Assembly: GCA_944320495.1 (NCBI GenBank)
Contig: CALUHR010000001.1
Coordinates: forward strand, 21,697-85,696
Reading direction: 5' to 3'
Length of the DNA stretch: 64,000 nt
From: Candidatus Methanomethylophilaceae archaeon
GTDB lineage: Archaea > Thermoplasmatota > Thermoplasmata > Methanomassiliicoccales > Methanomethylophilaceae
In this document: piece after piece, positions 1,919 to 61,104 of the stretch
Layout: every line of letters starts with the position of its first letter
Numbering within the stretch: the first letter of the stretch is position 1
Notes under the pieces: model-generated
Database searches by the model: none
What the model was told of the DNA's origin: nothing
Seen by the model: only the letters and a program-made list of their open reading frames with translations
Translations under genes and position numbers: made by a program

Positions 1919-2299
1919 ATGACCATCCTGAGGGTAAGCGAACTTATCGAATGCAAGCACATGACGAGCATACTCGCCTGTCTGTACATGCGCGGATCCA
2001 TGGGCAAGAGCGAGATCTACGACACGATCTCCAACAGCCCCAACATGGCACTGAAGCTCCGCATCCTCTCCGATGAGGGGCTGGTGGAGTCGAACCAGGT
2101 GGGGAGGCGCACCGAGTACAGTCTGACCGAGAAGGGGAGCTCCGTCGCGGAGAAGCTCTGCGGGCTGGAGGAGCTCGTCTACGGGAGGGTCGGGGACCTG
2201 AACCACCTGGAGGAGGGGACAATCCATCTGGACGGGGACGTCCCCGACGAGACCCGCGACTGGTTCGAGGACCGCAGGAGGGGCTGTTGTCCCCTGCGA
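1919..2299 (+). CDS. Winged-helix (HxlR/ArsR-like) transcriptional regulator; ends at CGA 2297-2299
   Basis: wHTH pattern (KLRILSDEGLVE...RTEYSLTEKG). CGA directly abuts the TGA of convergent paaK (2300-2302); otherwise the ORF runs 960 nt antisense into paaK. Confidence 0.8.
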
Positions 2300-3601
2300 T
2301 CACTCGTAGCTCCTGTTGTCGGTGACGTGGTTCGCCTTGCCCTCGAACCTCTCCAGGGTCCCGGGCAGCTCGAGCCTGACGTCCGCCTTGATGTTGAGGA
2401 CGCTCTTCAGACGGGCCGAGAGGGTCTTGGACATCTCGGCCAGCTTGTTCATGTCCTCGGTGAGGTACTCCTCGTTGAGCTCGACCCTGACGGTCATGGC
2501 GTCCATGTAGTTGGCGTTCTCCAGGGTGATGTGGTAGAACGGGGAGAGGAACGGCAGCTCGCCGATGACGCTCTCGATCTGGGACGGGAACACGTTGACC
2601 CCGCGGACCACGAGCATGTCGTCGGTCCTTCCCGAGATCCTCGAGAGACGAGGGTGGGTCCTGCCGCAGGCGCACTTCTCCCAGGTGATCGAGGAGATGT
2701 CCCCCATTCTGTAACGGATCAGGGGGAACGCCTCCTTCTGGAGCATGGTGACGACGATCTGTCCCTTCTCGCCCTCGGCGCAGGGCTCGTCGTTCTCGTC
2801 GAGGATCTCGACGTAGGCCAGGTCGGCCCAGACGTGGATGCCCTGCTGCTCGGAGCATTCGAGGAACATGGGTCCGGACATCTCGCTGGCCCCGTAGCAG
2901 TTGTGGACGCGGACGCCGGTCCTGTCCTGGAGCTTCCTCCTCATGCTCTCGGACCAGGGCTCGCCGCCGGCGATGGCCAGCTTGACCTTGGTGTCCCTGC
3001 GGATGTCGACGCCGATCTTGTCGCAGACGTCGGCGATGTGGAACATGTAGGAGGGCGTCCCGGCCCAGGCGGTCACGGGGAGGTCCTGCATGAGCTGGAT
3101 CTGCCTCTCGGTGTTCCCGGTGCTTATGGGCAGGACGGTGGCGCCGATCCTCTCCGCACCGTAGTGGACCCCGAGCCCTCCGGTGAAGAGGCCGTATCCG
3201 TGGAAGTTCTGGAGCATGTCCTTCTTGGTCATGCCGAAGGAGGTCATGCCCCTGGCTAGGGACTCGGTCCAGTTGTCCAGGTCCTTCTGTGTGTATCCGA
3301 CGACGGTCGGTCTGCCGGTGGTGCCAGACGAGACGTGGATCCTGGTGATGTCGTCGTAGGGGACGGTGAACAGCTTGTCCGGGTAGTTGTCCCTCAGGTC
3401 GGACTTGCGCATGAACGGGACCTTGCGGAAGGCCTCGAAGCTGTCGATGTCCTCGGGGAGTACGCCGGCCTCGCGCATCCTGTCGTGGAAGAACGGGGAC
3501 TTGTCATACATCTCGCGCACCTTGGCCTTGAGCAGGCTGAGCTGGAGCTTCTCCAGTTCCTCGCGCGGCATAGTCTCGATCCTCTCGTTCCAGAACGCCA
3601 T
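2300..3601 (-). CDS. paaK: Phenylacetate-CoA ligase (copy 1)
   Basis: SSGTTGRPT AMP-binding loop, YGLFTGGLG, YGASE, GRTDDML..RGVNVFPSQIE. Confidence 0.92.
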   Translation of the reverse strand: MAFWNERIETMPREELEKLQLSLLKAKVREMYDKSPFFHDRMREAGVLPEDIDSFEAFRKVPFMRKSDLRDNYPDKLFTVPYDDITRIHVSSGTTGRPTVVGYTQKDLDNWTESLARGMTSFGMTKKDMLQNFHGYGLFTGGLGVHYGAERIGATVLPISTGNTERQIQLMQDLPVTAWAGTPSYMFHIADVCDKIGVDIRRDTKVKLAIAGGEPWSESMRRKLQDRTGVRVHNCYGASEMSGPMFLECSEQQGIHVWADLAYVEILDENDEPCAEGEKGQIVVTMLQKEAFPLIRYRMGDISSITWEKCACGRTHPRLSRISGRTDDMLVVRGVNVFPSQIESVIGELPFLSPFYHITLENANYMDAMTVRVELNEEYLTEDMNKLAEMSKTLSARLKSVLNIKADVRLELPGTLERFEGKANHVTDNRSYE

Positions 3602-3717
3602 TTCCGTACCCTCTGCTATGTGCTATCATCTAGCACGGTTGGTCGCAGTTATGCATGCCCGTATATAAGGAGTGCGATGAGAAAGGAAATACTCCCCAGG
3701 AGGGGAGGAAGTGTTTT

Positions 3718-4680
3718 TCACTCGAGGGTGGCGGAGCCCGCGACGCGGAGCTTCCCGCCCTCGAGGTACATGATTGTGGCCTTGTCACCGGGCCTGTGGA
3801 TGATGTCCGACTCGAGCTCGAGGACGACGGAGGCGGACCTGAAGTCGCCGTCGCCGTCGACGGAGGCCACCCTGCAGGGGACCATCTGCATCCAGTGGCC
3901 GATGTGGAGCACCATGCCCTCCTTCAGGGGGCTGGGCCAGTACTTGACGAGGGAGATCTTGCCCTCGATCTTCCTAGACATCTTCACGGACGGGTCGGTA
4001 GTGACGACGAATCCCCTGTCGAGCTCGTCGGACTCGATGCCACGGAGGGCTAGTCCGACGTGGTCGCCCTTGACACCGAAGTCCGCGTCGAGGTCGTGCT
4101 TCTGGATGGACTTGAGGGTGACTTCGCGCCTGATCGGGAACACGGTCATCTTGTCGTGCTTCCTGAACCATCCGTCGATGACGGATCCGAGGACCACGGT
4201 GCCGACGCCGCGAACGTTGAAGTGGCTGTCCACGGGGCACGAGCCGCAGGTCCCGTCGCTGGGCTGCCTGCCGTCCGCCTTCGCCATGGCGATGAGCTCC
4301 TCGCGCAGCTTGATGGGGTCCTCGTCCCTGAACTCGTAGTTCTCCAGGCAGGTGCCCGCCAGCAGGGGCTTGAGCTGCTCCGGCTGGATGTAGTTGCGGA
4401 GGACGATCCATCCCTTGTCGATGCCGAGGCTGTCCGTCATGACGATGGTCTCGCCCAGGAAGGAGTCGATGCTGTCCACGACGAGGATGGCGAACTCGGA
4501 CATCGCCACCGAGTAGAACAGGGACGAGAGCTTCTCGGGGTACTTGGAGGGCTCGATCAGGGTGAAGGAGTCGGTCCCGGACTTGTAGTCGTAGAAGGTC
4601 ATGTCGGTGACGGTTCCCTTCTTTCCGACCTCGCCGGCGAGGCCCTTGGCGCCGATGACGGCCACGTTCAGGTTGCCCAT
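3718..4680 (-). CDS. SelB-like / EF-Tu domain II-III translation-factor paralog with degenerate G domain
   Basis: DSHFNVRGVGTVVLG, KSIQKHD and GDHVGLALRG (EF-Tu domain II). No canonical GxxxxGK(S/T). Confidence 0.75.
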   Translation of the reverse strand: MGNLNVAVIGAKGLAGEVGKKGTVTDMTFYDYKSGTDSFTLIEPSKYPEKLSSLFYSVAMSEFAILVVDSIDSFLGETIVMTDSLGIDKGWIVLRNYIQPEQLKPLLAGTCLENYEFRDEDPIKLREELIAMAKADGRQPSDGTCGSCPVDSHFNVRGVGTVVLGSVIDGWFRKHDKMTVFPIRREVTLKSIQKHDLDADFGVKGDHVGLALRGIESDELDRGFVVTTDPSVKMSRKIEGKISLVKYWPSPLKEGMVLHIGHWMQMVPCRVASVDGDGDFRSASVVLELESDIIHRPGDKATIMYLEGGKLRVAGSATLE

Positions 4681-4682
4681 GT

Positions 4683-5111: not shown

Positions 5112-6410
5112 TCAAATCACCCTTGTGTCGACGACCCTCTTGGCCTTGCCCTCGAACCTCGGCAGCTCGCCGGGAGCCTTGAGTTCCACCTTGGCATAGA
5201 TGTTCAGGTACTTCTTCAGCTCGGCCTCGATCTTCGCCCTGAGCTGGGCCATCTGGGCCATGTTGTCGCTGAAGGCCTCCGGACGGATCTCGACCTGGAC
5301 GGTCATCTCGTCCAGGGCACCCTCTCTGGAGACGTAGATCATGTACTGCTGACCGACCTCGGGGATGCGCATGAGCGTGTACTCGATCTGGGACGGGAAC
5401 ACGTTGATTCCGCGGACGATGAGCATGTCGTCGGACCTTCCGGAGATCCTCCCGATGCGGGGGGACGTGCGTCCGCAGGCGCACTCGTCCTCCATGAGGT
5501 AGGAGATGTCGCGGATCCTGTAGCGGATCATGGGCATGGCCTCCTTCTGGAGCATGGTGACGACCATCTCTCCCTTGTCGCCGTTCTCGACGGGTTCCCC
5601 GGAGTCGGGGTCGACGATCTCGACGAGCATGATGTCGCCGGCGACGTGGATCCCGTTCCTCTCGGTGCACTCGGTGAACATGGGTCCGGCCTGCTCGGAG
5701 GTGCCGTAGATGTCGTAGGCCTCGATGCCCATCTCGTCATGGATGAACTTGCGCATGCTCTCGGACCAGGGCTCGGCTCCGAGCAGTCCCTTGCGGAGCT
5801 TGGTGTCGTTCTTGATGCTGACGCCCATGGAGTTGGCGACGTCGTTGAGGTGGATCAGGTAGGACGGGGTGCACGCGATGGCGGTGACGCCGAGGTCCTG
5901 GATGAGCTCTACCTGCCTCTGGGTGTTACCGGTGCTGGAGGGCAGGACGGTCGCCCCGACCTTCTCGCCGCCGTAGTGGGCGCCGAGACCGCCGGTGAAC
6001 AGGCCGTAGCCGTAGGAGACCTGGAGGACGTCCCCAGGTCCGATGCCGACGGAGGTCATGGAGCGGGCGAGGGCCTCGGTCCAGTAGTCCAGGTCGTTCT
6101 GGGTGTATCCGACCAGCGTGGGCTTCCCGGTGGTCCCTGAGGAGACGTGGTACCTCACGATCTCGTTCTTCGGGACGGTGAAGAGCTTGTCCGGGTAGTT
6201 GTCGCGCAGGTCCTGCTTGTACATGAACGGGAGCTTGCGGATGTCCGCCAGACAGGTGATGTCGTCGGGGTGGACCTTGTTCTCGACCATGCGGTCGTGG
6301 TAGAACTTGTTGAAGGAATAGAGGTTGTATACCAGCTGTTTGAGCTCGCGGTACTGAAGCTTCTTGAGCTCCTCCACGGGCATGCATTCGATTCTGGGGT
6401 TCCAGTACAT
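5112..6410 (-). CDS. paaK: Phenylacetate-CoA ligase (copy 2)
   Basis: SSGTTGKPT, YGYGLFTGG, YGTSE, GRSDDML. Confidence 0.92.
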   Translation of the reverse strand: MYWNPRIECMPVEELKKLQYRELKQLVYNLYSFNKFYHDRMVENKVHPDDITCLADIRKLPFMYKQDLRDNYPDKLFTVPKNEIVRYHVSSGTTGKPTLVGYTQNDLDYWTEALARSMTSVGIGPGDVLQVSYGYGLFTGGLGAHYGGEKVGATVLPSSTGNTQRQVELIQDLGVTAIACTPSYLIHLNDVANSMGVSIKNDTKLRKGLLGAEPWSESMRKFIHDEMGIEAYDIYGTSEQAGPMFTECTERNGIHVAGDIMLVEIVDPDSGEPVENGDKGEMVVTMLQKEAMPMIRYRIRDISYLMEDECACGRTSPRIGRISGRSDDMLIVRGINVFPSQIEYTLMRIPEVGQQYMIYVSREGALDEMTVQVEIRPEAFSDNMAQMAQLRAKIEAELKKYLNIYAKVELKAPGELPRFEGKAKRVVDTRVI

Positions 6411-6482
6411 GTTCGCCCTCTGGGATTATACGGGCTCGATGCGCAGACACTACTAAAAAGATACTATCGCGATGGAGGGTGC

Positions 6483-7061
6483 ATGGGACAGCAGGACGTC
6501 TGGGACTCGTTCTACCGCTCCAACGGCCGGGCGTGGAGGGGCAACTGCAGGATGCCGGACCCGCTGGGAGGCGGGGGCGACGCCCTCGACCTGGGGTGCG
6601 GGAGCGGCAAGAGCGTGTCCACGCTGATCGACATGGGCTACAGGGCGGTCGGCCTCGACTTCTCGGATGAGGCCGTGTCCATGTGCAGGGAGAGGTTCGG
6701 CGGGGCGGCGGAGTTCGTCTCCGGCGATGTGCTGGCACTGCCGTTCGATGACGGTTCCTTCGACTATGTGACGGCTGTCCATGTGCTCGAGCACCTGACC
6801 GACGAGGCTCTCCGTACGGCTGCGGGGGAGATCGCGAGGGTCCTGCGCCCGGGCGGATACGCCTTCGTCAGGGACTTCGCCCCGGGGGACCTGAGATCGG
6901 AATCCAGGGAGGGGTCCGACATCAGGTACATTCACCGCACCCCCGAGGAGCTGGTCTCAGCGTTCGGGGACGTGGAGGTCGTGTCGGCTGGTGTCGTGGA
7001 GGAGAAGACGCGGTTCGGGGCGGTCCGCCGCCGTTCCGAGGTCCTCCTGAGACGCAGGCGA
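6483..7061 (+). CDS. Class I SAM-dependent methyltransferase; ends at CGA 7059-7061
   Basis: LDLGCGSG motif I, VGLDFS, LPFDDGSFD, RVLRPGG. First CGA is at the fold end, followed by TATA-like CTATATG and the next ATG. Confidence 0.85.
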
Positions 7062-7112
7062 TGCTTCCCCGGTCATCGAAGCCTATATGTTGTCGGGCCC
7101 AATCGGCCGTTT

Positions 7113-7469
7113 ATGAAGTGCCCCCGTTGTGGTCACGAGAATCCGGATGAGGTCCTCTTCTGCGAGGAGTGCGACTGGAGGGTCGACGTCCCTTACATAC
7201 CGGAGAAGAAGCGCAATCCAGTGCATTTCGCAGGCGCGACGATCGTCCTGGGACTCATCGCCGCGGTGTGCGCGTTCATGAGCGGAACCGAGCTCGTGGC
7301 ACTGGCCGTCGGAGCCATCGCCCTCATCCTGGGAGGATACTCCATGGGCGTCGCCAGACTAGTCGAGACCGACAAGACCCAGCTGTGCCTCGCCATCTCA
7401 GGTGTCGGTATGATCCTCGGGGTCCTCGGATTCCTCATCGGCTTCGCGTCCTTCGTGGGAGCGATGTGA
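7113..7469 (+). CDS. Zinc-ribbon plus three-TM membrane protein
   Basis: MKCPRCG..N...FCEEC followed by hydrophobic helices. ATG about 24 nt after the TATA-like element. Confidence 0.8.
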   Translation: MKCPRCGHENPDEVLFCEECDWRVDVPYIPEKKRNPVHFAGATIVLGLIAAVCAFMSGTELVALAVGAIALILGGYSMGVARLVETDKTQLCLAISGVGMILGVLGFLIGFASFVGAM

Positions 7470-7990
7470 TGGCAGTCTACCGCGGGAAGTACATACTCGA
7501 GGGTCTCGGAAGCATAAGCCCCGAGATGGAGCACAACCTCGACATCGCCTACGACATCTGCATGTCCTACAAGGGGGACTTCCCCTGCGAGATGTGCGGG
7601 AGGTGCTGCCACCAGCCCCACATAGTCGTGAGGCCGGAGGAGATCGACCGCGTCTCCACGGCCGCGGGCATCCCCCTTCCCGTCTTCATGACCGAGTACC
7701 TGGTACGCATGCCGGACGGAAGGTTCCTGTTCAGGAAGACCGATCCGTGCGCGTTCCTAGGGAAGGACAACAGGTGCACCATCTGGAAGGACCGTCCTCA
7801 GATCTGCGACGACTTCCCCTACGCGGTCTCGATGTTCATGAGCCGCGTGTATCTCGCGCTCACGAATCCTGACGCGGACATCATGTCCCTCATATCCTAC
7901 ATGGATGACGAGTGGCCGTGCACTCGCGTCATCAAGGCGGACATAGCCTCCAAGATAGAGGCGGCCCGCAAGGACGTCGTCGTCCAGCGA
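7469..7990 (+). CDS. YkgJ-family CxxCxxCC (Zn/Fe-chelating) protein; ends at CGA 7988-7990
   Basis: CEMCGRCC, CAFL...CTIW.DRPQIC..FP. TGATG overlap with the upstream gene. Confidence 0.82.
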
Positions 7991-8765
7991 TCGGGTGCTC
8001 CGAGAAGAAGCCGAGCAGCTCGTCCGCGTACGCGTCGAACGGTATGCCATGGCCCTGTCCCTCCAGGATGATCATCCTGCTGTCGGGGATGCGATCCGCC
8101 ACCTTGATCCCCTGCTCGCAGGGGACCATGATGTCCTCGTCGCCGTGGATGAGCAGTGTCGGTGCGGTTATTCCGAGGTCCGGCTCGCCGGAATCGTTGT
8201 CGCCGATGGCGTCCAGCTGCAGGAGGAGACCGTGCGGGTCCAGGGGCTCACGCGGCAACGGTGCGTCCCTCCCCTCGGCCTCGAACCTCCTGAACGTGGA
8301 CTCGGTCAGGCAGAACGCGTTTATCGACCTGAACAGGCACTCCATAGGGGCCCTCCCGTCCAGGACCATGCCGATCATCCCCCTCAGGACGTAATCCGAT
8401 CTGGCCGGTCTCTGGAGATAGGTCCCCACGAGGGTCAGGTCGGCGACCCTGTCGGGATGCCTGCAGGCGAGCTTTCTCGCTATGTGGGATCCCATGGACC
8501 AACCCACCACATGCGCCTTCCCGATCCCGAGTTCGTCCATGACGGCGACGGCGTCGTCCGCCATGTCGGCCATCGAGAAGGGTCCGTCGTACACGGTGTC
8601 GCCCACCCCGCGATTGTCCATCGTCACGCAGAGGCACCCATCGAGCAGAGGAGGTATCCTCCTCCAGTAGGAACCGGCGGCTCCGAACCCGGCCAGTAGG
8701 ATGACGGGCTCCCCGTCACCGGAGGTCTCGTAGCATATCCTGGCCCCGACGGATTCGGCGAACAT
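7980..8765 (-). CDS. Alpha/beta hydrolase; ends at CGA 7980-7982 (second CGA at 7977-7979)
   Basis: DNRGVG, GWSMG nucleophile elbow, IHGDED, GQGHG catalytic His near the C-terminus. Confidence 0.85.
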
Positions 8766-8836
8766 GAAGCCGTCATGTCCGCATCCGCCTTAAACCAACG
8801 CGTAGCATAATTATCGTGGTAGGCGATTCCGCGTGC

Positions 8837-10075
8837 ATGTCCGAGTCCAAGAAGAGGATCCTTCTGATGGTCCTCGACGGTGCCGGTGACCGCGCCTGTC
8901 CCGAACTCAGGGGTCTCACCCCGTTGCAGCACGTCAGGACGCCGAACCTGGACTGGTTCGTCGAGCACGGGATCGCCGGGCTCTGCGATCCCATATCGCC
9001 CGGGGTGCGCGCCGGCAGCGACACCGCCCATCTCTCCATCCTGGGGTATGACGCCCGGGCCGTGTACACCGGCAGGGGTCCTTTCGAGGCCATCGGGGCG
9101 GGTGTGGACATACAGCCCGGCGATGTGGCGTTCAGATGTAACTTCGCCACCGTCAACAGCGACATGGAGATCCTGGACCGCAGGGCAGGCAGGATAAGGG
9201 AGCCTGAGACGGAACAGCTCGCCGAGGCGCTGGACGGCATAGAGATAGACGGGATCGAGTGCTCGGTCCACGCCGGAACGGAGCACAGGGCGGTGCTCGT
9301 CCTGAGGGGGGACGGGCTTTCGCCCGATGTCACGGACTGCGATCCGGGGGAGGACTCCCATCTGCTCAGGTGTGAGCCGCTCACCGAGGAGGCGCAACTC
9401 ACCGCGGACGTCGTCAACGGATTCCTGGACGAGGCCTACGAGAGGCTAAGGTCTCACACCGTCAACAGGAAGAGGTCCGCCGCCGGCCTCCCTCCGGCCA
9501 ACATTCTGGTCCCCCGTGGGGCTGGCGGATATCCCGACATCGAGTCGTTCCAGGAGAAGTACGGCATCAGCGCAACCTGCGTTGCCGGTGTCGGTCTCGT
9601 CAAGGGCATATGCAAGGTCTGCGGACTGGACGTCTATCCGCTCCCGCCAGTCTGCGACGGGGGCATGGACTCTGATCTCATCATGAAGATGGAGGGAGTC
9701 CTCGAAGCTCTCGAGGAGTACGATTTCGTCCTGATGAACATCAAGGCCCCGGACGTGGCGGGGCATGACGGCGACGCCAAGGCGAAGAGCGAGGTCATCA
9801 AGCGTATAGACGCGGCGGTGGGATTCTTCCGTTCCAGGATGCCTGAGGACCTGGTCGTCGTGATTACCTGCGACCACTGCACCCCGTGCTCGCTCCAGGA
9901 CCATAGTGGCGATCCGGTGCCCATAGCGTTCTACACCCAGGGCATGATCTGGGACGATGCCGGGGAGTTCAGCGAGACCGGATGCTCCAGGGGCATGGTC
10001 GGGAGGATCAGGGCGACAGACATCATCCCGATCTGCATGGACCTGGCAAACCGCACGTCGAAGTTCGGATCGTGA
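8837..10075 (+). CDS. apgM: 2,3-bisphosphoglycerate-independent phosphoglycerate mutase (archaeal type)
   Basis: LDGAGD, TPLQ..TPNLD, GSDTAHL, PDVAGHDG, TCDHCTP, HSGDPVP. Confidence 0.92.
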   Translation: MSESKKRILLMVLDGAGDRACPELRGLTPLQHVRTPNLDWFVEHGIAGLCDPISPGVRAGSDTAHLSILGYDARAVYTGRGPFEAIGAGVDIQPGDVAFRCNFATVNSDMEILDRRAGRIREPETEQLAEALDGIEIDGIECSVHAGTEHRAVLVLRGDGLSPDVTDCDPGEDSHLLRCEPLTEEAQLTADVVNGFLDEAYERLRSHTVNRKRSAAGLPPANILVPRGAGGYPDIESFQEKYGISATCVAGVGLVKGICKVCGLDVYPLPPVCDGGMDSDLIMKMEGVLEALEEYDFVLMNIKAPDVAGHDGDAKAKSEVIKRIDAAVGFFRSRMPEDLVVVITCDHCTPCSLQDHSGDPVPIAFYTQGMIWDDAGEFSETGCSRGMVGRIRATDIIPICMDLANRTSKFGS

Positions 10076-10522
10076 GCACAGGCCCAGTTGTACCGTGAGG
10101 CTACCTCCTGTGGTGACCGGGACCGTCAGTCCCGCCGAGATGTCCGGTGTTCCGTAACCGTCCCCGATGCTCGTCCCCAGGACGTCACCGGATGGTGCCG
10201 AGAACGACAGATCCAGCAGATACGGTCTCCCCTTGCAGAAAGCATCCAGAGACTCCTCGAGATATTCCAGCGCCTCGCCCTTTCCCGTGACCAGGGACAG
10301 AGCCGCCATGTCGGACAGGCGGACCAGCGTGTCGTCCCCCTCCGACATGTCCGACATGCGGACCTTGGAGGACATCACGTCCTCCAGGAACCCGTAGGCG
10401 TCCCTGTCGTCATCCGCACCGGTGTCCGCGACCTGGGTGACCACGGAGGCCGCGATCATTATGACGAAGATGAACAGCATGGCGTCGACCATGGCGACGA
10501 ATCCGCGGTCGCTCGTGCGCAC
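10070..10522 (-). CDS. Pilin-like protein with class III signal-type N-terminus; GTG start, ends at CGA 10070-10072
   Basis: MRTSDRG|FVAMVDAMLFIFVIMIAASVV. CGA lies immediately past the convergent apgM TGA. Confidence 0.65.
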
Positions 10523-10920
10523 AGGACCACCTCGAACACCGCGAGCACCTCCCTGCCGCCGTCGCACCCTATCACGGACGTGACCGACCTCGACCACGGC
10601 GAGCCGTCGGTGGACCCGATCACGAAGGGCCCCGTCGCCTCGCAGAACCCCCCGGGCACGGTCACTGTGACGGAGGCGCCGGAAAGGCCCCTGGACCCCA
10701 GATACCTCTCGATATAATCCTGAAACGCGGGGATAAACTCCCCGTCGACGATCTCTCCCGTGATTCTGTCGGGATCAAGCCCCTCGGTGGGGTCCGACGT
10801 GATACCTGCCGCGCCGACCGCCAGTCCGAGGAATGCCGTCAGCACGAGGATGACGGCCATCGCGGCTATCATCGACTCCAGGAATCCCATGTCGCCCCTG
10901 TCGTCCGCATACATGGTCAC
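10513..10920 (-). CDS. Pilin-like protein with class III signal-type N-terminus; ends at CGA 10513-10515
   Basis: DDRG|DMGFLESMIAAMAVILVL. CGA lies 5 nt past the GTG of the next gene. TATA-like GGTTATATG upstream. Confidence 0.65.
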
Positions 10921-13080: not shown

Positions 13081-13593
13081 ATGGAATCCAAATTCGGATT
13101 GGACAGGCTGTTCGGGCATTCGGAGGAGCCCCCTCCGGCAGAGGTCTGCGACGACCTCCTGACGATTGACTGCAGGGGATGCGGGTACGCACCCGTCCCC
13201 GGGTCCAGGGAGTGCCTTGGATGCATGGTGGAGAGGATGAGCGCCGTAGGCGGCGCGGACAGGCTGATCCTCCGCACCGGGAGGGACACCGAGATATCCG
13301 GCAGGGCGGGCATGGCCGTCAGGGAGGCGGCTTCGCTTAGGCGTTGGTCGATGCCCCAGGAGCCTCCCAAGGGGCGCTGCAGGGCATGTCCGGTGTCTAG
13401 GCATGGGATCCTCTCCCGCGCGTGGGAGCGCTTCCCGGAGGGCATGACGGACGGTCTGGCGGAGGAGGCTCTGTCGCAGGTCCCGGAGAGGGACGGGTGC
13501 AGGGAGTGTGTGGAATCCACCGTTCGCGCCCTCGCGCAGCTGGACGAGGGCATGGCGGAGATCCTCTCCAAGATGACTGGTGGTCTGCCATGA
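13081..13593 (+). CDS. Cys-rich (CxxC x4) protein coupled to the pilus ATPase
   Basis: CRGC, CLGC, CRAC, CREC motifs. ATG 13081 fits TATA ATTATAAT at 13051-13058. ATGA overlap with the next gene. Confidence 0.7.
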   Translation: MESKFGLDRLFGHSEEPPPAEVCDDLLTIDCRGCGYAPVPGSRECLGCMVERMSAVGGADRLILRTGRDTEISGRAGMAVREAASLRRWSMPQEPPKGRCRACPVSRHGILSRAWERFPEGMTDGLAEEALSQVPERDGCRECVESTVRALAQLDEGMAEILSKMTGGLP

Positions 13594-15347
13594 AACTGCG
13601 CCTGCCGCCGTTCGCGACCATCATCCGCCCGTCGCCGGAGGACGATTTCGTCATCCCAGGGACCAAGGGCGGGGGACAAAACCCGCCCGGGAGACCTCCG
13701 TCCGCGCTCCAGAGGGCAGGGGGCAGCCCCTCGGCGTTCTCCGAGGCCTTCACGGTGCTCATGGGGGAGAACGTTCGCACCAAACCGTCATACACGGACT
13801 GCTGGATAGCATCGGTCCCCGAGCTCCGCCCGATCGCGTCGTACATGACAGACATGGGCTCCGTCCTCATCGGGCTGTCAGAGGGCGGTGAGACCGTGTA
13901 CTCCGTCACACCGAGGGAGTACGCGTACCCCGATCCGCTAAACGCGGTGGTGATGGACGTCATCGACGGGATCCGCGACGTGTACAGGGACGGCGGTGGG
14001 AGTCTGGACCGCGACACGGTCATGGGCATGACCCGCTCGGTCCTGACAGATAGGTGGGACGACCTGGAGAGGGCGTGCGGGGGCGGGGACGTGGAGTCGG
14101 TCATGAGGGACGTCTGCGCCATTGCGTACCGCCATTCCGTCGGCGCGGGGATATTCGAGGTCCTGCTGGCCGACCGCCACATCGAGGACATCTATGTGGA
14201 CGCACCTTGCAGCATGAACCGCATCCACGTCACGGTGAACGGGATCAACGGTCTGAACTCCCACATCAGATGCTCCACCAATCTGATGGCGGAGGAGCGC
14301 GAGGTATCCAACCTCCTGAACATCCTGAAGAGGGACAGTGGCCTTCGCTTCTGCAGGTCCTGCCCCGTCCTTGAGACGGATATGCGCGGGTTCGACGCGA
14401 GGGCGACCGTGGTGGGCTACCCGCTCAGCCCCAGGGGGAACGCGATTGCCATCAGGAAGCACTCCGTACGCCCGTGGACCCTTTCCCGTTTGATCGCCAA
14501 CGGCACCGTCAGCCCGAGGGCAGCCGGCATCCTCTCGTTCATAGTCAACAGCAGGGCGACCGTCCTGATATGCGGGGCGCGCGGGGCAGGCAAGAGCGCC
14601 CTCCTCAGCGCCCTGATGTTCGAGTTCCCGCTGAGCCAGAGGATACTCACCATCGAGGACACCCTGGAGCTGCCTGGAGACCACATGAGGAGGATGGGCT
14701 ACAAGGTGCAGACCATGCTGGTGGACGACCGCATCCAGGGGTCCGTCTCATCCCGCTCCGACGAGGCGTTGCGCGTGTCCCTGAGGCTGGGGGAGTCGGC
14801 GATAGTCATGGGGGAGGTCCGCGGGGAGGAGGCCAGGACGCTCTATCAGAGCATGCGCGCGGGCCGCGCCGGGAGCGCGATCATGGGCACGGTGCACGGC
14901 GACTCCGCCGCATCCGTCTACCAGAGGATGGTCTTCGACATGGGCATCCCACCCGAGGCGTTCGGCGCCACGGACATACTGGTGACCCTCGGGACGGTGA
15001 GGGACAGGCGCACGGGGAACCTCATCCGCAGGGTTAACGAGCTGGTGGCCACCGGTACATCCCCGGGAGAATTCCTGGATGTCTCAGGGGTGGACGGGCT
15101 TCTCGCATCGCCGTTCGCAGAGAGGGCCCTGTCCTCCCTTCAATTGGGCCGCAGGGACGTCGTGAAGGAGATCAGGGCGAGGTCGATGATGCGCTCGTAT
15201 CTGGCGTCCCTCGGCACCGAGGACGAGGGGTTCCTGGGACCGGAATGGGTCCTGGCGTCGAACGAGATCCTCGCCGGAATGCCCCAGTCGGCTTCCGCGG
15301 AGGAAGCCCTGGCCGTGCTGAAGGGGAGGACCGGTAGGGATGACCGA
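13590..15347 (+). CDS. Type II/IV secretion (VirB11/TadA-like) ATPase; ends at CGA 15345-15347
   Basis: Walker A GARGAGKS, TIEDTLEL, MGEVRG, GTVHGD. CGA 3 nt after the ATG codon of the next gene. Confidence 0.9.
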
Positions 15348-16728
15348 TCCGAGGAGGCTGACCAACGAGGGCCCGACGGTCGTCGGGCTGATGACCTCCG
15401 TCATAGAGTCGGGGGGATCCCTGGATACGGCGGCCAGGGCGGTGTCCGAGGAGGGGCCGAGACTCTCCGCTGAGCTGTTCTCCGGAGCCGTGAGGCTCAC
15501 GGACACCAAGGGCTCCGTCGGAATCTCTCAGGCGCTATCCGAATCGCTTTCCGTTCTGCCGGAGTCCGCTTCGGGCTACAGGCAGGCGATGCTGCTGTGC
15601 ATCTCCGCATCCGAGGCGGCCGAACCGCAGGAGAGGCTCAGGATCCTCAAGGAGGCTTCCGATGTGGCCCTGGACGCCGTGCGCATCATTGGGGAGAAGT
15701 ACGCCGCAGGCCTCTCCACGCCGTGCATGGCGGTCTTCGGCCTGGGGATAATGGCACCTATGATCCTGATGTCCATACTGCCGATCATGGGCCTCGGCGG
15801 GATGTTCGCTGAGATGCCGGTGGACAGCGGCACGATGCTCATGGCGACTCTGGTCCTGATCCCGGCGGCGATTCTCTGCCTGGCGTACTGGCTGCGCCAA
15901 TCGAACCCGTTCCTGGAGCGTTCGGGGAGTCCCCGCGACGCGGTGTGCGCACTACCACTCCTCACAGCAATCCCGCTCTATCTGGCGATGATGTCCCTGC
16001 GCACGGGGGCCGTGGAGGCCCTGATTCTCTCGATCGCCCCGTCCGCGGTGGCCTGTCTGATAATGATGTTCGACGGCCGCAGGGCGGACCAGGCCAGGGC
16101 CAGGTCCGAGAAGGGGCTGAGGGACTGCGTCTTCGAGCTTGGCAACTCCCTGCTGGGAGGAGACAACTTCGAGACCGTGGCCGTGGAGGCTGTGTCGTCC
16201 AGGGTCGAGTGCAGGGATGTGGGCACTGCGCTCAGCAGGGAACTCGACCTGTGCAGGGGAGATGTCCGCGGTGCGATCAGGAGATCGGTGGGACCGGTAT
16301 CGCCCGAGGTCTCCAGGACCCTCTGCGACATCCAGCACTGCTCCGAGAAGGACACCGAGGACGCGGGGAGGTTGGCCATCGCCGTGGGGAGGCAGTACCA
16401 GAACACGTCCAACATCAGGAACGAGCTGGGCCTGAAGCTCAAGGGGATGACCGACATGATGGTGGGCACGGCGATGCTGTTCGCCCCGATGGTCCTCGGG
16501 ATGAGCACATCGATGCTCGGGCCGCTAAGCGAGATATCCGGATACGCCGGCCTTGAGGGCACGGAGGTGGTGCTGGCCGTGTATCTCGTAGAGCTCTGCG
16601 CGATCATCGCCGTGCTCACGTCGAGCCTGGGGGACGGCGATGGCATCAGGGGGATGGTGTGGAGGTTCTGTCTCTCGTGTCCGATCGCCCTGGTCGTGTT
16701 CTGGTTCTGCATCGGGGTCCAGCTCCGA
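15340..16728 (+). CDS. TadB/TadC (T2SS F-domain)-like platform membrane protein; ends at CGA 16726-16728
   Basis: Two repeats of a soluble domain plus TM helices, next to the ATPase. CGA three codons before TAA. Confidence 0.75.
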
Positions 16729-16760
16729 AGGTGTTAACCCAGGGGAGGGGATGCGAGGGT

Positions 16761-17264
16761 ATGGACGGCAGGACCAGACTGTTGGTGGCGGGATGCATCG
16801 CATCTGGGGTGGTACTCGCCCTGATGTTCCTGTCGCCCCTCCTATCCCCCTACGGTCTCTTCAGGGGGCTTGACGGGTCCCCCGGATTCATAGACGGAGG
16901 CTGGGAGGGCGGAGGCCCGGCCAGTCTGGCGTATCTGCTGGGGGATCTCGTCTGTCATCAGGAGGAGGCCAGGAGCCTGATCCTGAACGGCTCCCAGATG
17001 CCCGTCTGCGCGAGGGACACCGGGATCCTCATAGGTCTCACGATCGGTTTCGCCGCATGTCTGCCCATCGGCAACAGGCTGGCGGACAGGCGCATCGCGG
17101 CCCTGGGCGTGGTGCTCGTAGCGGTCATGGCGGTCGAGTGGCTTGTGGAGACGACGGGCTTCGATTCGCAGGCCTGCAGGCTCATCTCTGGGGTTTCTGC
17201 CGGGGTCGGTGCGAGCCTATTTCTGGCTTGGATGCTATATAGGCAGGATGACCGGGGAGAGCGA
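16761..17264 (+). CDS. DUF2085-like membrane protein; ends at CGA 17262-17264
   Basis: CHQ...RS.......PVCARDTGI motif plus TM helices. Short overlap with the ATG at 17248. Confidence 0.8.
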
Positions 17265-17970
17265 CGCGGGTATCGACTGGGAGTACGGCAGGGCCGCCTC
17301 CGATGCGGTGGAGTGGCTCCTGAAGGAGGGATTCCTGAAAGAGGACGACTGCTCCATGAACGTCGCCTGCGGTCGCGGCGGATTCGCCGTTCCGATGAGC
17401 AGGGCGGTCCGTGTGCTGGTCTGCATGGACAGCAGCAGGGACTCCCTCGACATAACCGGTCAGCGCTGCGCCGGGGGATGTCGCACCGAGCTCTTTCAGC
17501 AGGACTGGCGCTCCTACGTCCCCGCCAGGGGGAGGTACGACTCATGTGTCATGTCGCCGTCGTACCTGTGCTTCAACATGGAGGCCATACGCAGGATCGA
17601 GACAGTCTCCAAAAGGGGATGCGCCGTGGTCTTCCCGCTAGAGTTCGACTACCGCAGGCTCCGGAAGGGATTCCTCCAGAGTCTCGGCGTCGATGCGGGC
17701 TTCCTGTCGATGCCGGAGTTCCCTGACCCGCGCCCGTTCGCCGTCTGGCTGTCGGAGAAGGGCAGGAACATGGAGACGCGTCGCTTCCAGTCCACAGTGG
17801 AGTGTCCCGACGAGGTCTTCAGGACGGCGATCGTCCGCGATTCCGTCCTTCACGGGGCCGACGAGGCCGCCGCAGCCTCCATGGCCGACAGATACGTCTC
17901 GAAGGTCAGCAGGGGCGGTGCGGTCAAGTACAAGTTCTCCGCCAACGTCGTTGCCTGGAACATGGTGCGA
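17248..17970 (+). CDS. SAM-methyltransferase-like fold protein; ends at CGA 17968-17970
   Basis: MNVACGRGG motif I, VLVCMDSS motif II. Confidence 0.6.
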
Positions 17971-20422: not shown

Positions 20423-20650
20423 TTCTCTCCCCCCGATGATTCCTCTCTTTTCGTTCGAGCCCAAGGTAACTTTTCCCCCTATTAAGGTCCAACGTGGATT
20501 ATGCATCCATCCATTATAAATTGGTGTGCAGATGTCGACAATGGACTGTTCTTTGTTAAGCTATGAGCTAGATTATTCCATAAATGTCTGAAATCAGACG
20601 ATTTTCGGCGGAAACAAGGCGATAGAGGAGGGGGAGGGACCCCCATCCCG

Positions 20651-44371: not shown

Positions 44372-45739
44372 ATGAGCAACGTCTGTCCCTTGGACTACAG
44401 GTACGGTCGCGAGGACATGAAGAATGTCTTCAGCGAGGACAGCCGCATACGCAACGAGATGCTCGTCGAGGCCGCCCTCGCCAGGGCGCACGCCTCTCTC
44501 GGCACCATCCCGCAGTCTGCGGCCGACGAGATCACCCGCGCTGCGACGCTGGACGTCGTCAGCGTCGACAGGATAAAGCAGATCGAGTCGGAGACCCGCC
44601 ACGACCTCATGGCCATGGTCAAGGCCGTGACCGAGAAGTGCGAGGGGGATGCCGGCAAGTACGTCCATCTCGGAGCAACATCAAACGACATCGTGGACAC
44701 AGCCACCGCCCTCCAGCTCAAGGAGGCCATGGGCATCGTCCTCGAGGACGTCGACAACCTGATCATGACGTTCGCCGCCCTGGCCAAGAGGGAGAGGGAC
44801 ACCCTCGAGATCGGCAGGACGCACGCGCAGTTCGCCATCCCGATCACCTACGGGTTCAAGGTCGCCGGATACATCGCGGAGATGATCAGGCACAGGGAGA
44901 GGATCATAGAGGCCATGCCCAGGGTGTGCGCCGGCAAGATGGCCGGTGCCGTCGGTACTGGAGCGGCCCTCGGAGCCAACTTCTTCGAGGTCCAGCGCAG
45001 GGTGATGTCCGATCTCGGGCTCACCTACGAGCCCGCGGCTACGCAGGTCGTCGGACGCGACAGGTACACCGAGGCCATATGCCTCATGGCGAACATCGCC
45101 GCATCCCTCGAGAGGTACTGCACCGAGGTCAGGAACCTCCAGAGGTCCGAGGTCGCCGAGGCGTCCGAGTACTTCGACGTGTCCAAGCAGGTGGGCAGCT
45201 CCACGATGGCTCAGAAGAGGAATCCGATGAACTCCGAGAACGTCTGCGGTCTGGCCCGCGTCATCCGCGGATTCGTCACGCCCGCCTTCGAGAGCCAGAT
45301 TCTCTGGCACGAGAGGGATCTGTGCAACTCCTCCACCGAGAGATTCACCCTGCCCCATGTGTTCGTCCTCATCGACGAGATTCTCAAGAAGACCGCCTGG
45401 ATCTACTCCGGGCTGGAGATCCATCGCGACAGGATGCTCGAGAACATCGAGTCCTCCCGCGGACTGGTCATGGCCGAGCCCCTCATGATGAAGCTCACCG
45501 AGAAGGGCATCGGCAGGCAGGACGCGCACGAGATCATCCGCTCATCCGCCATGGTCGCCGAGGACACCGGCAGGCACCTGAGGGATGTCCTGATGGAGAG
45601 GGAGGACCTCAAGGGTGTCCTCACCCCGGAGGAGATCGTCGCCACCATGGATGCCTCCAACTACGTTGGCGGAGCCAGGGAGATCGTCGACAAGATGGTC
45701 GCCGCCGCCGAGGACGTCGTTGGAAGGAAGGTCGAGCGA
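44372..45739 (+). CDS. purB: Adenylosuccinate lyase; ends at CGA 45737-45739
   Basis: PLDYRYG, TRHD, HLGATSND, GRTH, GSSTMAQKRNP signature. CGATG overlap with the next start. Confidence 0.95.
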
Positions 45740-48987: not shown

Positions 48988-49073
48988 TGGTGTCGGAGAG
49001 GGGATTCGAACCCCTGAACCACTAAGGACAGGATCCTAAGTCCTGCATCTTTGGCCTGCTTGATTACCCCGAC
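48988..49073 (-). tRNA. tRNA-Leu, anticodon UAG, encoded CCA
   Basis: Acceptor GTCGGGG/CTCCGAC-A-CCA, anticodon stem CAGGA/TCCTG with loop CT-TAG-GA, variable arm, GGTTCGAATCC T-arm. Confidence 0.95.
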
Positions 49074-50475: not shown

Positions 50476-50708
50476 ACGTAGCCCCGACTCATGACCCATG
50501 TGGGAGAGTAATCTGGATCTTCGGAATCCAATCGTGCCGTCATTAAATACGGGGTGCCAATCACCGTTCATGGTCCCGGCGGATGTGCCAGCCAGTATCG
50601 ATACGAGCCACGGTCTCATGGTCGCGCAATCAGTCAGTGGGACGTCAGGTCGTGACGATGCCCTCCGTTCCGATGTGGCATGTACGATTGGTCCGCGGAG
50701 GTCGTCGG

Positions 50709-52085
50709 TTGCCGAGCGATCACGAAATCTATGGTACGATGCAGGTCGGCCAGCTCTTCGCCAGATGCGCGGTTCCGGGCGTCATCTCTGGTCTGGTGTG
50801 GGCGCTCTGCTCCATCGCGGACGGGATCTTCGTGGGCAACTATCTCGGCAGCGATTCGCTGGCCGCCGTGAATCTGGCTTGGCCCGTCATGACCGTCGTC
50901 ATGGCGCTGGTGGATATGATAGCGGCCGGCTCCTCGGTCAGGATCTCGATGCATCTCGGCTCGGGGGATGTCGAATCAGCCAGGAGGGTCTTCTCGGGAT
51001 CGGTCCGGTTCATTGTCGTCATATCGGTTCTTTTCACCCTGTTCGGGGTGTTTCTCGCCGATCCGGTTGTACGCGTATTCGGCGCCGAAGGTGAGCTGGC
51101 CGAAGTCACTGCCCAGTACATCGCCGTATTCAGTCTGTTCGCTCCTGTGGGTCTGTTGTTCTTCGCCACGGACAACTACCTGAGGATATGCGGAGCCGTC
51201 GGGCTGAGCATGTGGATCAACGTGGGCGTCACGGTCCTCAACATAGGGCTCCTGGCACTGCTGATCGGCGTGATGGGGTACGGGACTTGGGCTAGCGCTT
51301 TCGCCACGGGCTTCAGCGTCTGCGTGGGTTCGGTGGTCGCCCTGGTCCCCTTTCTCCGCGGGAGGTACGTGCTCACATTCGTTAGGGGATGGATGGATCT
51401 GCGCACCACGGCCCGCGTGATGTACAACGGGATCTCCACGTTCTTCAACGGTGTCTCCGGGTCGCTCTACATGATGGTGGCTAACACTGTGCTCCTGGCG
51501 ATCGCGGGCAATGCCGGCGTCTCCTCCTTCGGGATCATCATGTACGTGAACTCGGTGATCGGGTCGCTGTTCTTCGGTACGGCGTCGGCCATGCAGCCGG
51601 CGCTCAGCTACAACCACGGTGCTGGCGACGGTCACAGGGTGAGGTCGCTTTCCGCGGTCATGTTCGCCGTGTCCATGGCGATGGGCGTCGGCATGTGCGC
51701 CGCATGCATCCTATTGGACGACGGTATCGTGTCTGTCTTCCTGAGCGACGGCGACTCATCCGTGGCGGCGATGGCCGCTGCCGGTCTCTCGATATATGCG
51801 TTCTCGTACCTCACGATGTGGGCGTCCACGGAGGTCAACCAGGTCCTGGCTGCGACGGACCTCCCGACGTACGCGCTGTCTGTCGGCGTGACGTCCCAGC
51901 TCGTCATACCGGTACTGCTCCTGCTCCCGATGTCGGAATGGGGGGTGGACGGCGTGTGGTGGTCGATGGTCCTTGGTTATGCGGTGTCCGCTGTGTTCGC
52001 GGCGGTCATGCTGTTCCTGGGCATCCGCAGGGGGATATTCTCGGCAGGATCCCCGTGCCCTCCGTCCGATCCCGATGCATTCCGA
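50709..52085 (+). CDS. MATE family efflux transporter; TTG start, ends at CGA 52083-52085
   Basis: DGIFVG..LG...LAAVNL, QPALSYNHGA. GGAGGT RBS before TTG. CGA precedes the iorA TATA-like CTATAAC. Confidence 0.85.
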
Positions 52086-55779: not shown

Positions 55780-55867
55780 CCAATGGCTCTTTCTGTCGGT
55801 GAAATCGTTTGGCCAGCACCGTACCGGCCTCTGCCGGAGGCAGTCCCATCCGGCCGGCCGGTGCTAT

Positions 55868-56295: not shown

Positions 56296-56314
56296 CTCAC
56301 TTGCAAGTAGTCTA

Positions 56315-56600: not shown

Positions 56601-56687
56601 GGGCCCAGCCAGTTCGGCCGTCGGCCCGCTCTCCACGACACCTATTAATGCTATATCCTAATCGCGTGCGCATAGAGGGTACACCAG

Positions 56688-59570: not shown

Positions 59571-59574
59571 TGGG

Positions 59575-60030
59575 ATGTTCATAGACATCGCTCGCTCCAG
59601 GCACAGCTGCAGGTCCTACACGGAGGCGCCCCTGTCGGACGAGCAGGTCCGCCTGATTATGGAGGCCGGCGAGCTCGCCCCCTCCTCCAGGGACCTCCAT
59701 CCAGTGAGGCTCATCCCCGTGTCGGACATCCCGACGATCAGGAGGCTGGCCGGATGCAAGGACCATGGCGCCGAGCCCCTGCGCGGGGCGACCTTCGCCG
59801 TCGTCGTTGCAGCAGACGAGGGGAAGGCCGACACATGGCTGGAGGACGCATCAATCGCATCCATTATGATGCAGCTGGAGGCGGAGGACCTCGGGATCGG
59901 CTCGTGCTGGATCCAGATCCACCTCAGGTCCCTGGGCGACCGTCCCGCGGAGGACGTCGTCAGGGAGATCATGGGTCTGGAGGACGGCACCAGGGTGCTG
60001 TCCGTCATCTCCTTCGGAAGGAAGGCATGA
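59575..60030 (+). CDS. Nitroreductase family protein
   Basis: RHSCRSY, LAPSS, DASIA, LGIGSCWI. Confidence 0.9.
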   Translation: MFIDIARSRHSCRSYTEAPLSDEQVRLIMEAGELAPSSRDLHPVRLIPVSDIPTIRRLAGCKDHGAEPLRGATFAVVVAADEGKADTWLEDASIASIMMQLEAEDLGIGSCWIQIHLRSLGDRPAEDVVREIMGLEDGTRVLSVISFGRKA

Positions 60031-60548
60031 TCGTCGAGCCCCTGCATCCCCAGGACGTCGAGGCCGCTCGGTCGCTGTATCTGGATGCGTTCCCGGAGTA
60101 CGAGCGCGCGGAATGGGAAGCTCTCGTCAACAATTCGGGATGGGGGGATGCAGAGCTGCTCGGGATATACGATGCCGGCCTTGCGGGCATCTCGTATGTG
60201 ATATTCGACGAGACGTTCCTCTTCGTCCTCTATCTCGCCATCGAACCCTCCCGCAGGGGGACGGGCGTGGGCTCCGGGGCATTACGCATCATCGAGAGCA
60301 TGTATTCCCATGGCAGGACATTCCTCAACGTAGAGCCCACGGACGAGGCCTGCGACAATCCCGAGCAGCGTTTACGCAGGGTGGCCTTCTACGAGCGCTG
60401 CGGTTACTCCGCAGCATGGAAGCTCGTCATCGACGAGAACGAGAAGTACACGGTCATGTGCAAAGGGGTCCCGATAACCCCTGACGAGATGGAATCCTTC
60501 AGGGTCAGGCACGGCTTCTCAAGACTGTTCGGGCATCAGGGGGAACGA
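60027..60548 (+). CDS. GNAT acetyltransferase; ends at CGA 60546-60548
   Basis: YLAIEPSRRGTGVGS, RRVAFYERCGY. ATGA overlap at the start. Confidence 0.85.
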
Positions 60549-60555
60549 TCCGACG

Positions 60556-61104
60556 TCGTTTCCATCTCTCATACAGTGAGTGCTCGATCCCGACCTGGTC
60601 CAGGCACCTGCCCACGACTATGTCCACGATGTCGCTGACGGTCCTGGGTCTGGGATAGAACCCCGGGTTGGCATCGACGATCGTGACGCCCAGTCTAGCG
60701 AGCTTCAGTTCGTTCTCCAGCATGATGGCGCTCTTGGGCGTCTCCCTGACCAGCAGGACGAGCCTCCTGTTCTCCTTTATGCACACCGATGCCGCACGGG
60801 ATATGAGGGTGTCGGCTATGCCGTTGGCGAACTTGGCAACGGAAGATTCGCTGCACGGGGCGACGAACATCGCTTCGTAGCGGAAGCTTCCGGATGCGAT
60901 AGAGGCGAACATCTCGTCGTCGGAGAAGACCTGGTCGGCCATGGACTCGACCTGTTCGACCGTGTAGTCGGTCTCGGCGGGGATGATCTCCCTGGCGGTG
61001 CGGGACATGACGAGTATCCTCTCGCCCTTCAGCTCCTGAAGGAGCCTTATCCCGTAGATGGCACCGGATGCGCCCGATATGGCGACGACGTACCTCACGA
61101 CCAT
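60556..61104 (-). CDS. ubiX: Flavin prenyltransferase; ends at CGA 60556-60558
   Basis: ISGASGAIYG, IASGS, APCS, RAA.V.IKE.R.LVL..RETP, PGFY, terminal RW. Confidence 0.92.

Follow-up and report, generated by a model that had tools for sequence, protein, structure and literature searches.

CGA as a probable stop codon at gene ends in a Methanomethylophilaceae archaeon

Why should neighboring genes of opposite orientation abut at their 3′ ends only if CGA, an arginine codon in the standard code, is read as a stop? This question is raised by a window of 64,000 nucleotides (contig C1:21697-85696) from the genome of Candidatus Methanomethylophilaceae archaeon, in which approximately 17 of approximately 58 genes terminate in CGA. 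Our data suggest that CGA is probably used in this genome mainly as a translation stop, for which the release factor aRF1 would compete with a weakened tRNA-Arg(UCG), and that this stop would be leaky and would allow aRF1 to regulate its own synthesis. If CGA is mainly a stop, convergent genes abut instead of overlapping by hundreds of bases. The host is a member of the Methanomethylophilaceae, in the genus holding Candidatus Methanoprimaticola, and the aRF1 of its near relative Candidatus Methanoprimaticola sp. MG2 is 91% identical to its own. The genome comprises 1.77 Mb in 14 contigs, with 62% GC and a completeness of 90.6%; its tRNA set is archaeal in type, and its inventory of tRNAs and transfer-messenger RNAs includes none of the latter; the assembly likewise yielded no small-subunit (SSU) rRNA. 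Positions are those of the window unless another contig is named, and G000 denotes this genome, while G004, G006, G013, G102, and similar labels denote the relatives that were compared with it.

The initial annotation described six junctions in the window at which two genes would end within 12 nt of each other if CGA were a stop. Each of them was located where it had been placed, the gene names agree with those that we assigned, and the spacing of the two gene ends (negative for an overlap) remains within 12 nt, whereas reading CGA as arginine under translation table 11 turns all six into antisense overlaps, as had also been claimed (Table 1). Only the term "head-to-head" was wrong, as the junctions are tail-to-tail, formed by convergent 3′ ends. 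The window holds 11 convergent pairs in total; beyond the six junctions, two have a CGA end, with gaps of 214 nt, and in the remaining three, standard stops (TGA/TGA or TAA/TGA) lie 33 to 81 nt apart.

Reading CGA as a stop restores gene architecture better than does any other codon. A single gene-calling routine was run on the genome with table 11 and then with each of the 61 sense codons in turn added to it as a further stop. Coding coverage is 75.5% under table 11, 80.4% with the next best codon, and 84.3% with CGA, which is the only codon to raise coverage to this level and, among the codes keeping most of the coverage, leaves the least double-covered sequence (0.49%). Convergent neighbors no more than 20 nt apart account for 34.3% with the CGA stop, compared to 8.8% under table 11 and a maximum of 16.2% with any other codon. 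The initial annotation had proposed a genome-wide comparison of convergent overlaps against codon controls, and its expectation held: the CGA stop shortens the overlaps, and the 60 control codons all fall far short of this effect.

With CGA as a stop, 1,510 genes were called, ending in TGA (1,075), CGA (365, or approximately 24%), TAA (53), and TAG (17). Across the 230 convergent pairs, the summed overlap amounts to 1,262 nt, compared to 49,691 nt when the same called genes are extended to the next standard stop, a 40-fold difference. The proportion of pairs overlapping by more than 30 nt is 35.7% under table 11 and 5.2% with the CGA stop; since pairs with two standard stops (the TGA/TGA level) show 4.8%, the CGA-stop reading yields the normal picture. 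Among the 125 convergent pairs with at least one CGA end, approximately 51 lie within 12 nt of abutting, far more than chance would produce; under table 11, the number falls to approximately 3, and in 77 pairs the overlap exceeds 30 nt. For the 31 pairs with CGA at both ends, the median distance is 0, and 77% of them lie within 12 nt. CGA accounts for 34% of the ends in convergent pairs versus 24% overall, in our opinion because it is common antisense to coding sequence (opposite TCG, or NTC followed by G); a gene losing its TGA at a convergent end would soon run into an antisense CGA.

The coding signal collapses at CGA as well. We considered each codon following 50 stop-free, coding-like codons (G+C content at the third codon position [GC3] above 0.75 and GC1 above GC2) and scored the share followed by 50 more such codons. 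The signal persists past CGA in 8 of 665 cases (1.2%), past TGA in 4.4%, past TAA in 6.0%, past TAG in 6.9%, and past sense codons in 32 to 76%. In the 187 CGA-ended open reading frames (ORFs) with at least 30 codons between CGA and the next standard stop, GC1/GC2/GC3 changes from 0.63/0.44/0.84 upstream of CGA to 0.75/0.56/0.59 downstream. CGA is purged from conserved positions inside genes: only seven in-frame CGAs genome-wide are flanked by coding signal on both sides, one of them in aRF1, and the orthologous stretches of congeners contain 0 to 2 CGAs per 3 to 8 thousand codons. The other six two-sided CGAs of G000 (C13:194143, C8:55685, C8:98213, C5:178733, C1:9791, and C13:325759) may be read-through sites or same-frame gene junctions.

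What follows the terminal CGA fits a leaky, weaker terminator that would be backed by further stops and, to judge from codon bias (see below), shunned in highly expressed genes. When all four stop codons are counted, the next one in frame lies a median of 7 codons past a CGA end versus 14 past a TGA end (p = 9e-11), and a further stop occurs within 3 codons after 32% of CGA ends, compared with 12 to 16% in the other two frames. The base after a terminal CGA is T in 54% of cases versus 29% after TGA, much of this excess deriving from overlapping starts and partner stops. In addition, 54 of the 365 CGA terminators directly precede TCG, generating the palindrome CGATCG where two CGA-ended genes abut.

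Comparison with relatives shows that CGA occupies gene ends at which homologs carry a standard stop. In congeners, the orthologs of the CGA-ended genes of the window have TGA or TAA at the same codon ±2, several of them exactly there, and the same agreement of terminators was observed around aRF1 in 19 genomes (16 other genera). The junctions themselves recur, with a distance of 0 nt with the CGA stop in one pair each from UBA537 (-1,374 nt under table 11), UBA480 (-1,362 nt), and MG2 (-672 nt); because these assemblies come from different projects, an artifact of the present assembly is ruled out. The relatives were sampled over approximately 10 to 60 kb each, and their CGA ends were counted on orthologs, greedy longest-ORF calling having been dropped because it chose antisense ORFs at high GC. 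A CGA stop used uniformly across the genus was rejected, as its sampled frequency spans 0/30 to 5/12. CGA ends are frequent in G000 and among the orthologs of G010 (5/12), UBA537 (6/15), G128 (3/12), UBA480 (4/12), and G130 (3/10); they are rare in G102 (0/30), G013 (0/17), G131 to G133 (0/17 each), and G008 and G015 (0/15 each).

Release factor aRF1 and tRNA-Arg(UCG)

A single gene encodes aRF1 (G000, C2:85936-87165), and its only in-frame CGA is codon 78, the conserved arginine of the RLK motif just after NIKS. This CGA is retained, at codon 78 or 81/83, across the genomes of the genus examined, G005 being different: its aRF1, from an assembly with 8% contamination, has lysine at position 78 and a single CGA at Arg25 instead, as if the device had been re-created at another site. 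We examined 80 named loci of the family for the aRF1 CGA and for CGA use in the neighboring genes. In 48 family genomes from many genera, the sampled genes contain 0 or 1 CGA per 1.5 to 6.6 thousand orthologous codons, and aRF1 carries a single CGA, always early, at codon 9, 11, 25, 50, 78, or 81/83. Thirteen family genomes and seven outgroup genomes read CGA as arginine, and there the CGAs of aRF1 are scattered or missing. One early CGA that shifts its position within aRF1, with the codon purged elsewhere, is what we infer a feedback device would look like, and it suggests that this gene carries a conserved early in-frame terminator codon of its own, as the release factor gene prfB does.

The NIKS and YxC motifs of aRF1 are unchanged. 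Its motif YRCDSTF aligns with YLCDNKF of human eRF1 and places an arginine at position 123, while position 127 of the YxCxxxF motif (T/Q/S versus E/D) provides only a weak lead to a residue distinguishing CGA-free from CGA-using genomes.

The gene for tRNA-Arg(UCG) is present (55.7 bits against the Rfam tRNA model), with an anticodon arm that departs from the norm in each member of the genus that was examined. Among 18 aligned orthologs, positions 31 and 39 fail to pair in all seven from the genus, whereas they pair in all 11 representatives of other genera. Since compensatory changes persist at the remaining pairs of the anticodon stem, the gene is not in decay, and the tRNA is under structural selection. 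The mismatch A31·A39 is found in 6/6 genomes of the genus with frequent CGA ends, while genomes in which such ends are rare have C31·A39, U31·C39 (G013), or a paired stem with a C33/A37 loop (G008, G015, G007, and G019). In the last subclade, the anticodon loop reads CCUCGAC, with C33 in place of the near-universal U33 and with A37, and the 31-39 pair is intact; the absence of the gene from the complete genomes G008 and G015 was rejected as a pattern artifact, as a covariance model detected it. The A31·A39 rule was upheld in 5/5 further genomes, which had been selected by their CGA-end frequency before the tRNA was inspected, and on a tree of aRF1, a single gene, the association appears in two independent contrasts, namely, G000 versus G013/MG2 and G128 plus G130 versus the C·A clade. 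With small samples and related genomes, the apparent link between positions 31·39 and the frequency of CGA ends is a lead and not proof.

These observations can be accommodated in a model. In this scenario, aRF1, the sole release factor, would recognize CGA as it does UGA and would compete with a tRNA-Arg(UCG) whose anticodon arm is weakened, here by the A31·A39 mismatch, so that CGA would be a somewhat leaky stop. The aRF1 gene would exploit the residual read-through via its codon-78 CGA: a surplus of aRF1 would cut its own translation short at this codon, whereas under a shortage the tRNA would prevail. At the end of a gene, a transition from TGA to CGA would then be close to neutral, and such changes would accumulate where the tRNA is weakest.

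Terminators of the window genes

Every Pfam match in the CGA-ended genes finishes upstream of the CGA, and in the junction genes the tails 3′ of CGA contain no Pfam domain. In the Pelota-like gene, the eRF1_3 profile is matched over positions 3 to 106 of 106, and the match stops one residue before the CGA. As this gene and the HMGL-like synthase gene share a frame, table 11 makes one fused chimeric protein of the two, with a Pelota open frame of 858 amino acids (aa) versus approximately 350 in most relatives. Under table 11, the HxlR-type winged helix-turn-helix (wHTH) gene likewise gains a 320-codon tail antisense to paaK, the pilin-like gene is lengthened by 208 codons antisense to apgM, and 168 codons are added to etfA, in which ETF_alpha is matched over positions 2 to 80 of 81, up to residue 313 of 353.

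The orthologs of individual genes show how closely the terminators correspond. In seven congeners, the YkgJ-like gene ends in TGA or TAA 1 to 4 codons from the end of the alignment; TGA is present at the same site ±1 codon for the pilin-like gene in G013, G004, and G006 and for the T2SSE-type ATPase gene in five congeners, and at exactly the terminator codon for the gene upstream of the pilin-like gene (10513-10920) in G013 and G004. The hydrolase gene ends in TGA in G004 and in CGA in G006, where a TGA follows one codon on. For the 462-aa gene, TGA occupies the exact codon in G008 and G006, while G004 has CGA at that codon, with the next standard stop 125 codons downstream.

Table 1. Window genes discussed in the text, with their terminators and, for the six convergent junctions, the distance between gene ends with CGA as a stop and under table 11
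Gene	Position	Strand	Terminator	Junction	Distance, CGA stop / table 11 (nt)	Remarks
Pelota-like gene, 3′ part	1-531	+	CGA 529-531			eRF1_3 domain
HMGL-like synthase	598-1806	+				Homocitrate/isopropylmalate synthase type; in frame with upstream Pelota-like gene
HxlR-type wHTH gene	1919-2299	+	CGA 2297-2299	1	0 / -960	126 aa; abuts paaK-like gene
paaK-like gene	2300-3601	-	TGA 2300-2302	1	0 / -960	AMP-binding
YkgJ-like gene	7385-7990	+	CGA 7988-7990	2	-11 / -140	CxxCxxCC
Alpha/beta hydrolase gene	7980-8765	-	CGA 7980-7982	2	-11 / -140	11-nt overlap with YkgJ-like gene
apgM	8816-10075	+	TGA 10073-10075	3	-6 / -630	Cofactor-independent phosphoglycerate mutase
Small pilin-like gene	10070-10522	-	CGA 10070-10072	3	-6 / -630	No Pfam hit; 6-nt overlap with apgM
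Small gene upstream of pilin-like gene	10513-10920	-	CGA 10513-10515			
T2SSE-type secretion/pilus ATPase gene	13590-15347	+	CGA 15345-15347			Overlaps start of next gene
462-aa gene	15340-16728	+	CGA 16726-16728			No Pfam hit
240-aa gene	17248-17970	+	CGA 17968-17970			Convergent with 18185-20506, gap 214 nt
TPR-repeat gene	29720-30346	-	CGA 29720-29722			
Arylamine N-acetyltransferase (NAT) gene	31079-31918	+	CGA 31916-31918	4	+10 / -104	Profile matched 6-236 of 240
Unnamed gene opposite NAT	31929-33068	-	TGA 31929-31931	4	+10 / -104	
bcp/AhpC-TSA peroxiredoxin gene	36018-36491	+	TGA 36489-36491	5	-12 / -516	
etfA	36480-37541	-	CGA 36480-36482	5	-12 / -516	Electron transfer flavoprotein alpha; 12-nt overlap with bcp
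Adenylosuccinate lyase gene	44372-45739	+	CGA 45737-45739			ADSL_C up to residue 441 of 455
MatE transporter gene	50688-52085	+	CGA 52083-52085			G102 ortholog has TGA there ±1 codon
GNAT acetyltransferase gene	60027-60548	+	CGA 60546-60548	6	+7 / -134	
ubiX-type flavoprotein gene	60556-61173	-	CGA 60556-60558	6	+7 / -134	Flavoprotein profile 2-161 of 162

The T2SSE-type ATPase, 462-aa, and 240-aa genes, all CGA-ended, form a co-directional run with short overlaps (13590-17970), with a 201-aa ORF possible between the last two; this run may be a pilus or archaellum-like operon beside the two small pilin-like genes (10070-10920). The CGA-ended ORFs at 3335-4213 (+) and 6147-7061 (+), in which the coding signature is weak, lie antisense to stronger genes and are probably not genes. 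The sole tRNA gene in the window is that for tRNA-Leu(UAG) at 48988-49073 (-).

Competing explanations

Taken together, the overlap test, the collapse of the coding signature, the TGA codons of orthologs, and the junctions in other genomes support the initial annotation in its interpretation of CGA as a stop. Several points weigh against it. Termination at CGA is deduced here from DNA only. The gene for tRNA-Arg(UCG) has been kept and looks to be under selection, so some CGA must be arginine. Arg123 is also found in the aRF1 of relatives that use CGA as arginine, which makes it at most a predisposition, and among the genomes compared, no diagnostic aRF1 residue cleanly separates those free of CGA from those using it. 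The tRNA pattern has exceptions on both sides: Methanomassiliicoccaceae archaeon COG_1, from another genus, has CGA ends in 5/14 orthologs yet pairs positions 31 and 39, with only U32 (its aRF1 is 71% identical to that of G000, with CGA at codon 25), and G013 has the unpaired U31·C39 but CGA ends in 0/17. To judge from its long contigs (670 kb), COG_1 may be a culture. Frequencies in the relatives come from 8 to 30 orthologs per genome, a small number. CGA terminates 38% of the genes in the lowest codon-bias quartile and 8% of those in the highest, but the lowest quartile may include false gene calls. Finally, a rule by which the base following CGA decides between read-through and termination was rejected, as the base after the CGA of aRF1 varies among C, G, and T from one lineage to another.

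The alternative that fares best is that CGA is an unreadable or hungry codon at which ribosomes stall and are freed by rescue, through Pelota-type factors or peptidyl-tRNA drop-off, rather than by recognition through aRF1. The abnormal anticodon arm of tRNA-Arg(UCG) in every genome of the genus examined would be expected in this case, as would the avoidance of CGA inside genes, and a study of yeast casts the action of eRF1 at CGA as the rescue of stalled ribosomes (PMC7379694). We nevertheless consider this explanation unlikely. A stall as the usual end of a quarter of the genes would be costly, and the placement of CGA at the exact TGA sites of relatives fits a UGA-like recognition. Stalling would also leave unexplained why the early CGA that is retained in many genera, at shifting positions, is located in aRF1 itself, a location that points to aRF1 as the CGA-sensing factor.

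A second possibility is that the code is standard and that C-to-U RNA editing makes UGA from the terminal CGA. The two codons are one transition apart, and CGA-to-UGA editing that creates stops is known from plant organelles. However, editing blind to the reading frame would also strike tens of thousands of out-of-frame CGAs, and for proline, threonine, and alanine the amino acid encoded by NCG is kept in relatives about as well before A as in other contexts (89 versus 78%, 71 versus 68%, and 63 versus 65%, respectively). Serine is the exception, being kept less (58 versus 72%), and a minor leucine signal at TCG followed by A was noted qualitatively; we saw no general excess of the predicted leucine, methionine, and valine substitutions. 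Editing aware of the frame has no known basis, and neither form would explain why a selected tRNA-Arg(UCG) is retained or why aRF1 has CGA at a conserved arginine. We therefore regard editing as very improbable.

Hardly any credence can be given to the standard code without editing, under which CGA is arginine and the genes carry real, long C-terminal antisense tails. Both the existence of a tRNA-Arg(UCG) gene and the need for arginine at codon 78 of aRF1 agree with it, but the tails have no coding signature, no Pfam domain, and no counterpart in orthologs, CGA is used only past the conserved part of each protein, and antisense overlaps would have to total 49.7 kb in this genome. Systematic T-to-C miscalls at TGA, although suggested by the TGA of many congeners at CGA sites and by the T after 54% of CGA ends, have a negligible probability, because a miscall is blind to the reading frame, the same pattern is present in assemblies from other projects (UBA480, UBA537, metagenome-assembled genomes from sheep and deer gut, and COG_1), and the CGA of aRF1 is conserved across dozens of genomes.

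Known systems and implications

Sense-to-stop codes occur in organelles, as in NCBI tables 2 and 22. They concern AGA and AGG in vertebrate mitochondria and UCA in the mitochondria of Scenedesmus and other green algae (PMC6551751). As in our genome, gene ends are marked by a codon that the standard code assigns to an amino acid and that is missing from gene interiors; unlike it, organelle genomes are tiny, with few genes and reduced tRNA sets, whereas CGA ends approximately 365 genes of a free-living archaeon that has kept the cognate tRNA and has a single nuclear-type release factor. To our knowledge, no sense-to-stop change has been established in the genome of a cell as opposed to an organelle, and our literature search did not turn up CGA, or any other sense codon, described as a stop in archaea or bacteria. 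Codetta, the principal tool in screens for alternative codes and the program behind a screen of 250,000 genomes, is unable to detect sense-to-stop changes (PMC9825746). A 2025 study of stop codons in archaea encoding pyrrolysine (Pyl) covers this family for UAG only and does not mention CGA (PMC12626013). Ambiguous UAG, read as Pyl or stop, occurs in methanogens including Methanomethylophilaceae (PMC12626013), and the family is thus known to tolerate a codon read by both a tRNA and aRF1.

The one direct experimental precedent comes from yeast, in which eRF1/eRF3 competes with tRNA-Arg for CGA and terminates there, even where a gene has a single CGA at its end (Wada and Ito 2018, PMC7379694), and the UGA-biased eRF1 substitutions L123R/F/Y raise termination at CGA (PMC7379694). 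The homologous factor therefore stops at CGA, enhanced by an arginine at the position where this aRF1 has one, but what is a weak side reaction on reporters in yeast would here be the usual terminator of a quarter of the genes.

Self-regulation of release factors has precedents in bacterial RF2 (prfB), which is autoregulated through an in-frame UGA, and in the read-through feedback of plant eRF1. Like prfB, the aRF1 gene would bear its own terminator codon early, and synthesis would drop when the factor is abundant; escape occurs by a +1 frameshift in prfB, whereas here we propose decoding of CGA as a conserved arginine by tRNA-Arg(UCG). In Blastocrithidia, a stop was reassigned with a tRNA that has a 4-bp anticodon stem and with a mutant eRF1 (PMC13092985). 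There, too, the properties of the release factor combine with an altered anticodon stem in one tRNA to set the meaning of a UGA-type codon, although the direction is opposite: stop became sense, with the short stem strengthening decoding, while here sense would become stop, with decoding weakened, as we propose, by the 31·39 mismatch. Codons have also become unassigned, as CGG did in Mycoplasma capricolum and AGA/AUA did in Micrococcus luteus. In these cases, as here, an arginine-family codon vanishes from coding sequence, but an unassigned codon is not used at gene ends and its tRNA is lost. We rejected an unassigned CGA, since 365 genes end at it and the tRNA is present.

Among our observations, the following are possibly new: the single early CGA in aRF1 together with CGA-free genes across many genera of the Methanomethylophilaceae, and the patchy occurrence of frequent CGA stops, which within the genus tracks the A31·A39 mismatch. 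For annotation, the consequence is that in these methanogens of gut and rumen, standard gene callers would fuse or over-extend approximately one gene in four, as in the fusion of Pelota to a synthase or the calling of a 126-aa regulator as 446 aa, and every downstream functional survey would be touched. As the family is a source of PylRS/tRNA pairs in wide use for genetic code expansion, a natural CGA-reading aRF1 would, if confirmed, be of interest in that field.

If CGA is a stop as proposed, a sense codon can become a stop by way of a prolonged ambiguous phase, in which the release factor and a detuned tRNA would hold it, and relatives appear at different points of this passage. We suggest, as a broader and more tentative possibility, that CGA has a dual meaning in much of the family, with the tRNA tuned via positions 31·39, 32, and 33 and the level of aRF1 set by aRF1 itself, and that the A31·A39 lineages have drifted from TGA to CGA. 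Were this true, CGA would make up one-quarter to one-half of gene ends in the lineages with the weakest tRNA, and living relatives, some of which are cultivable, would represent several stages of a sense-to-stop reassignment.

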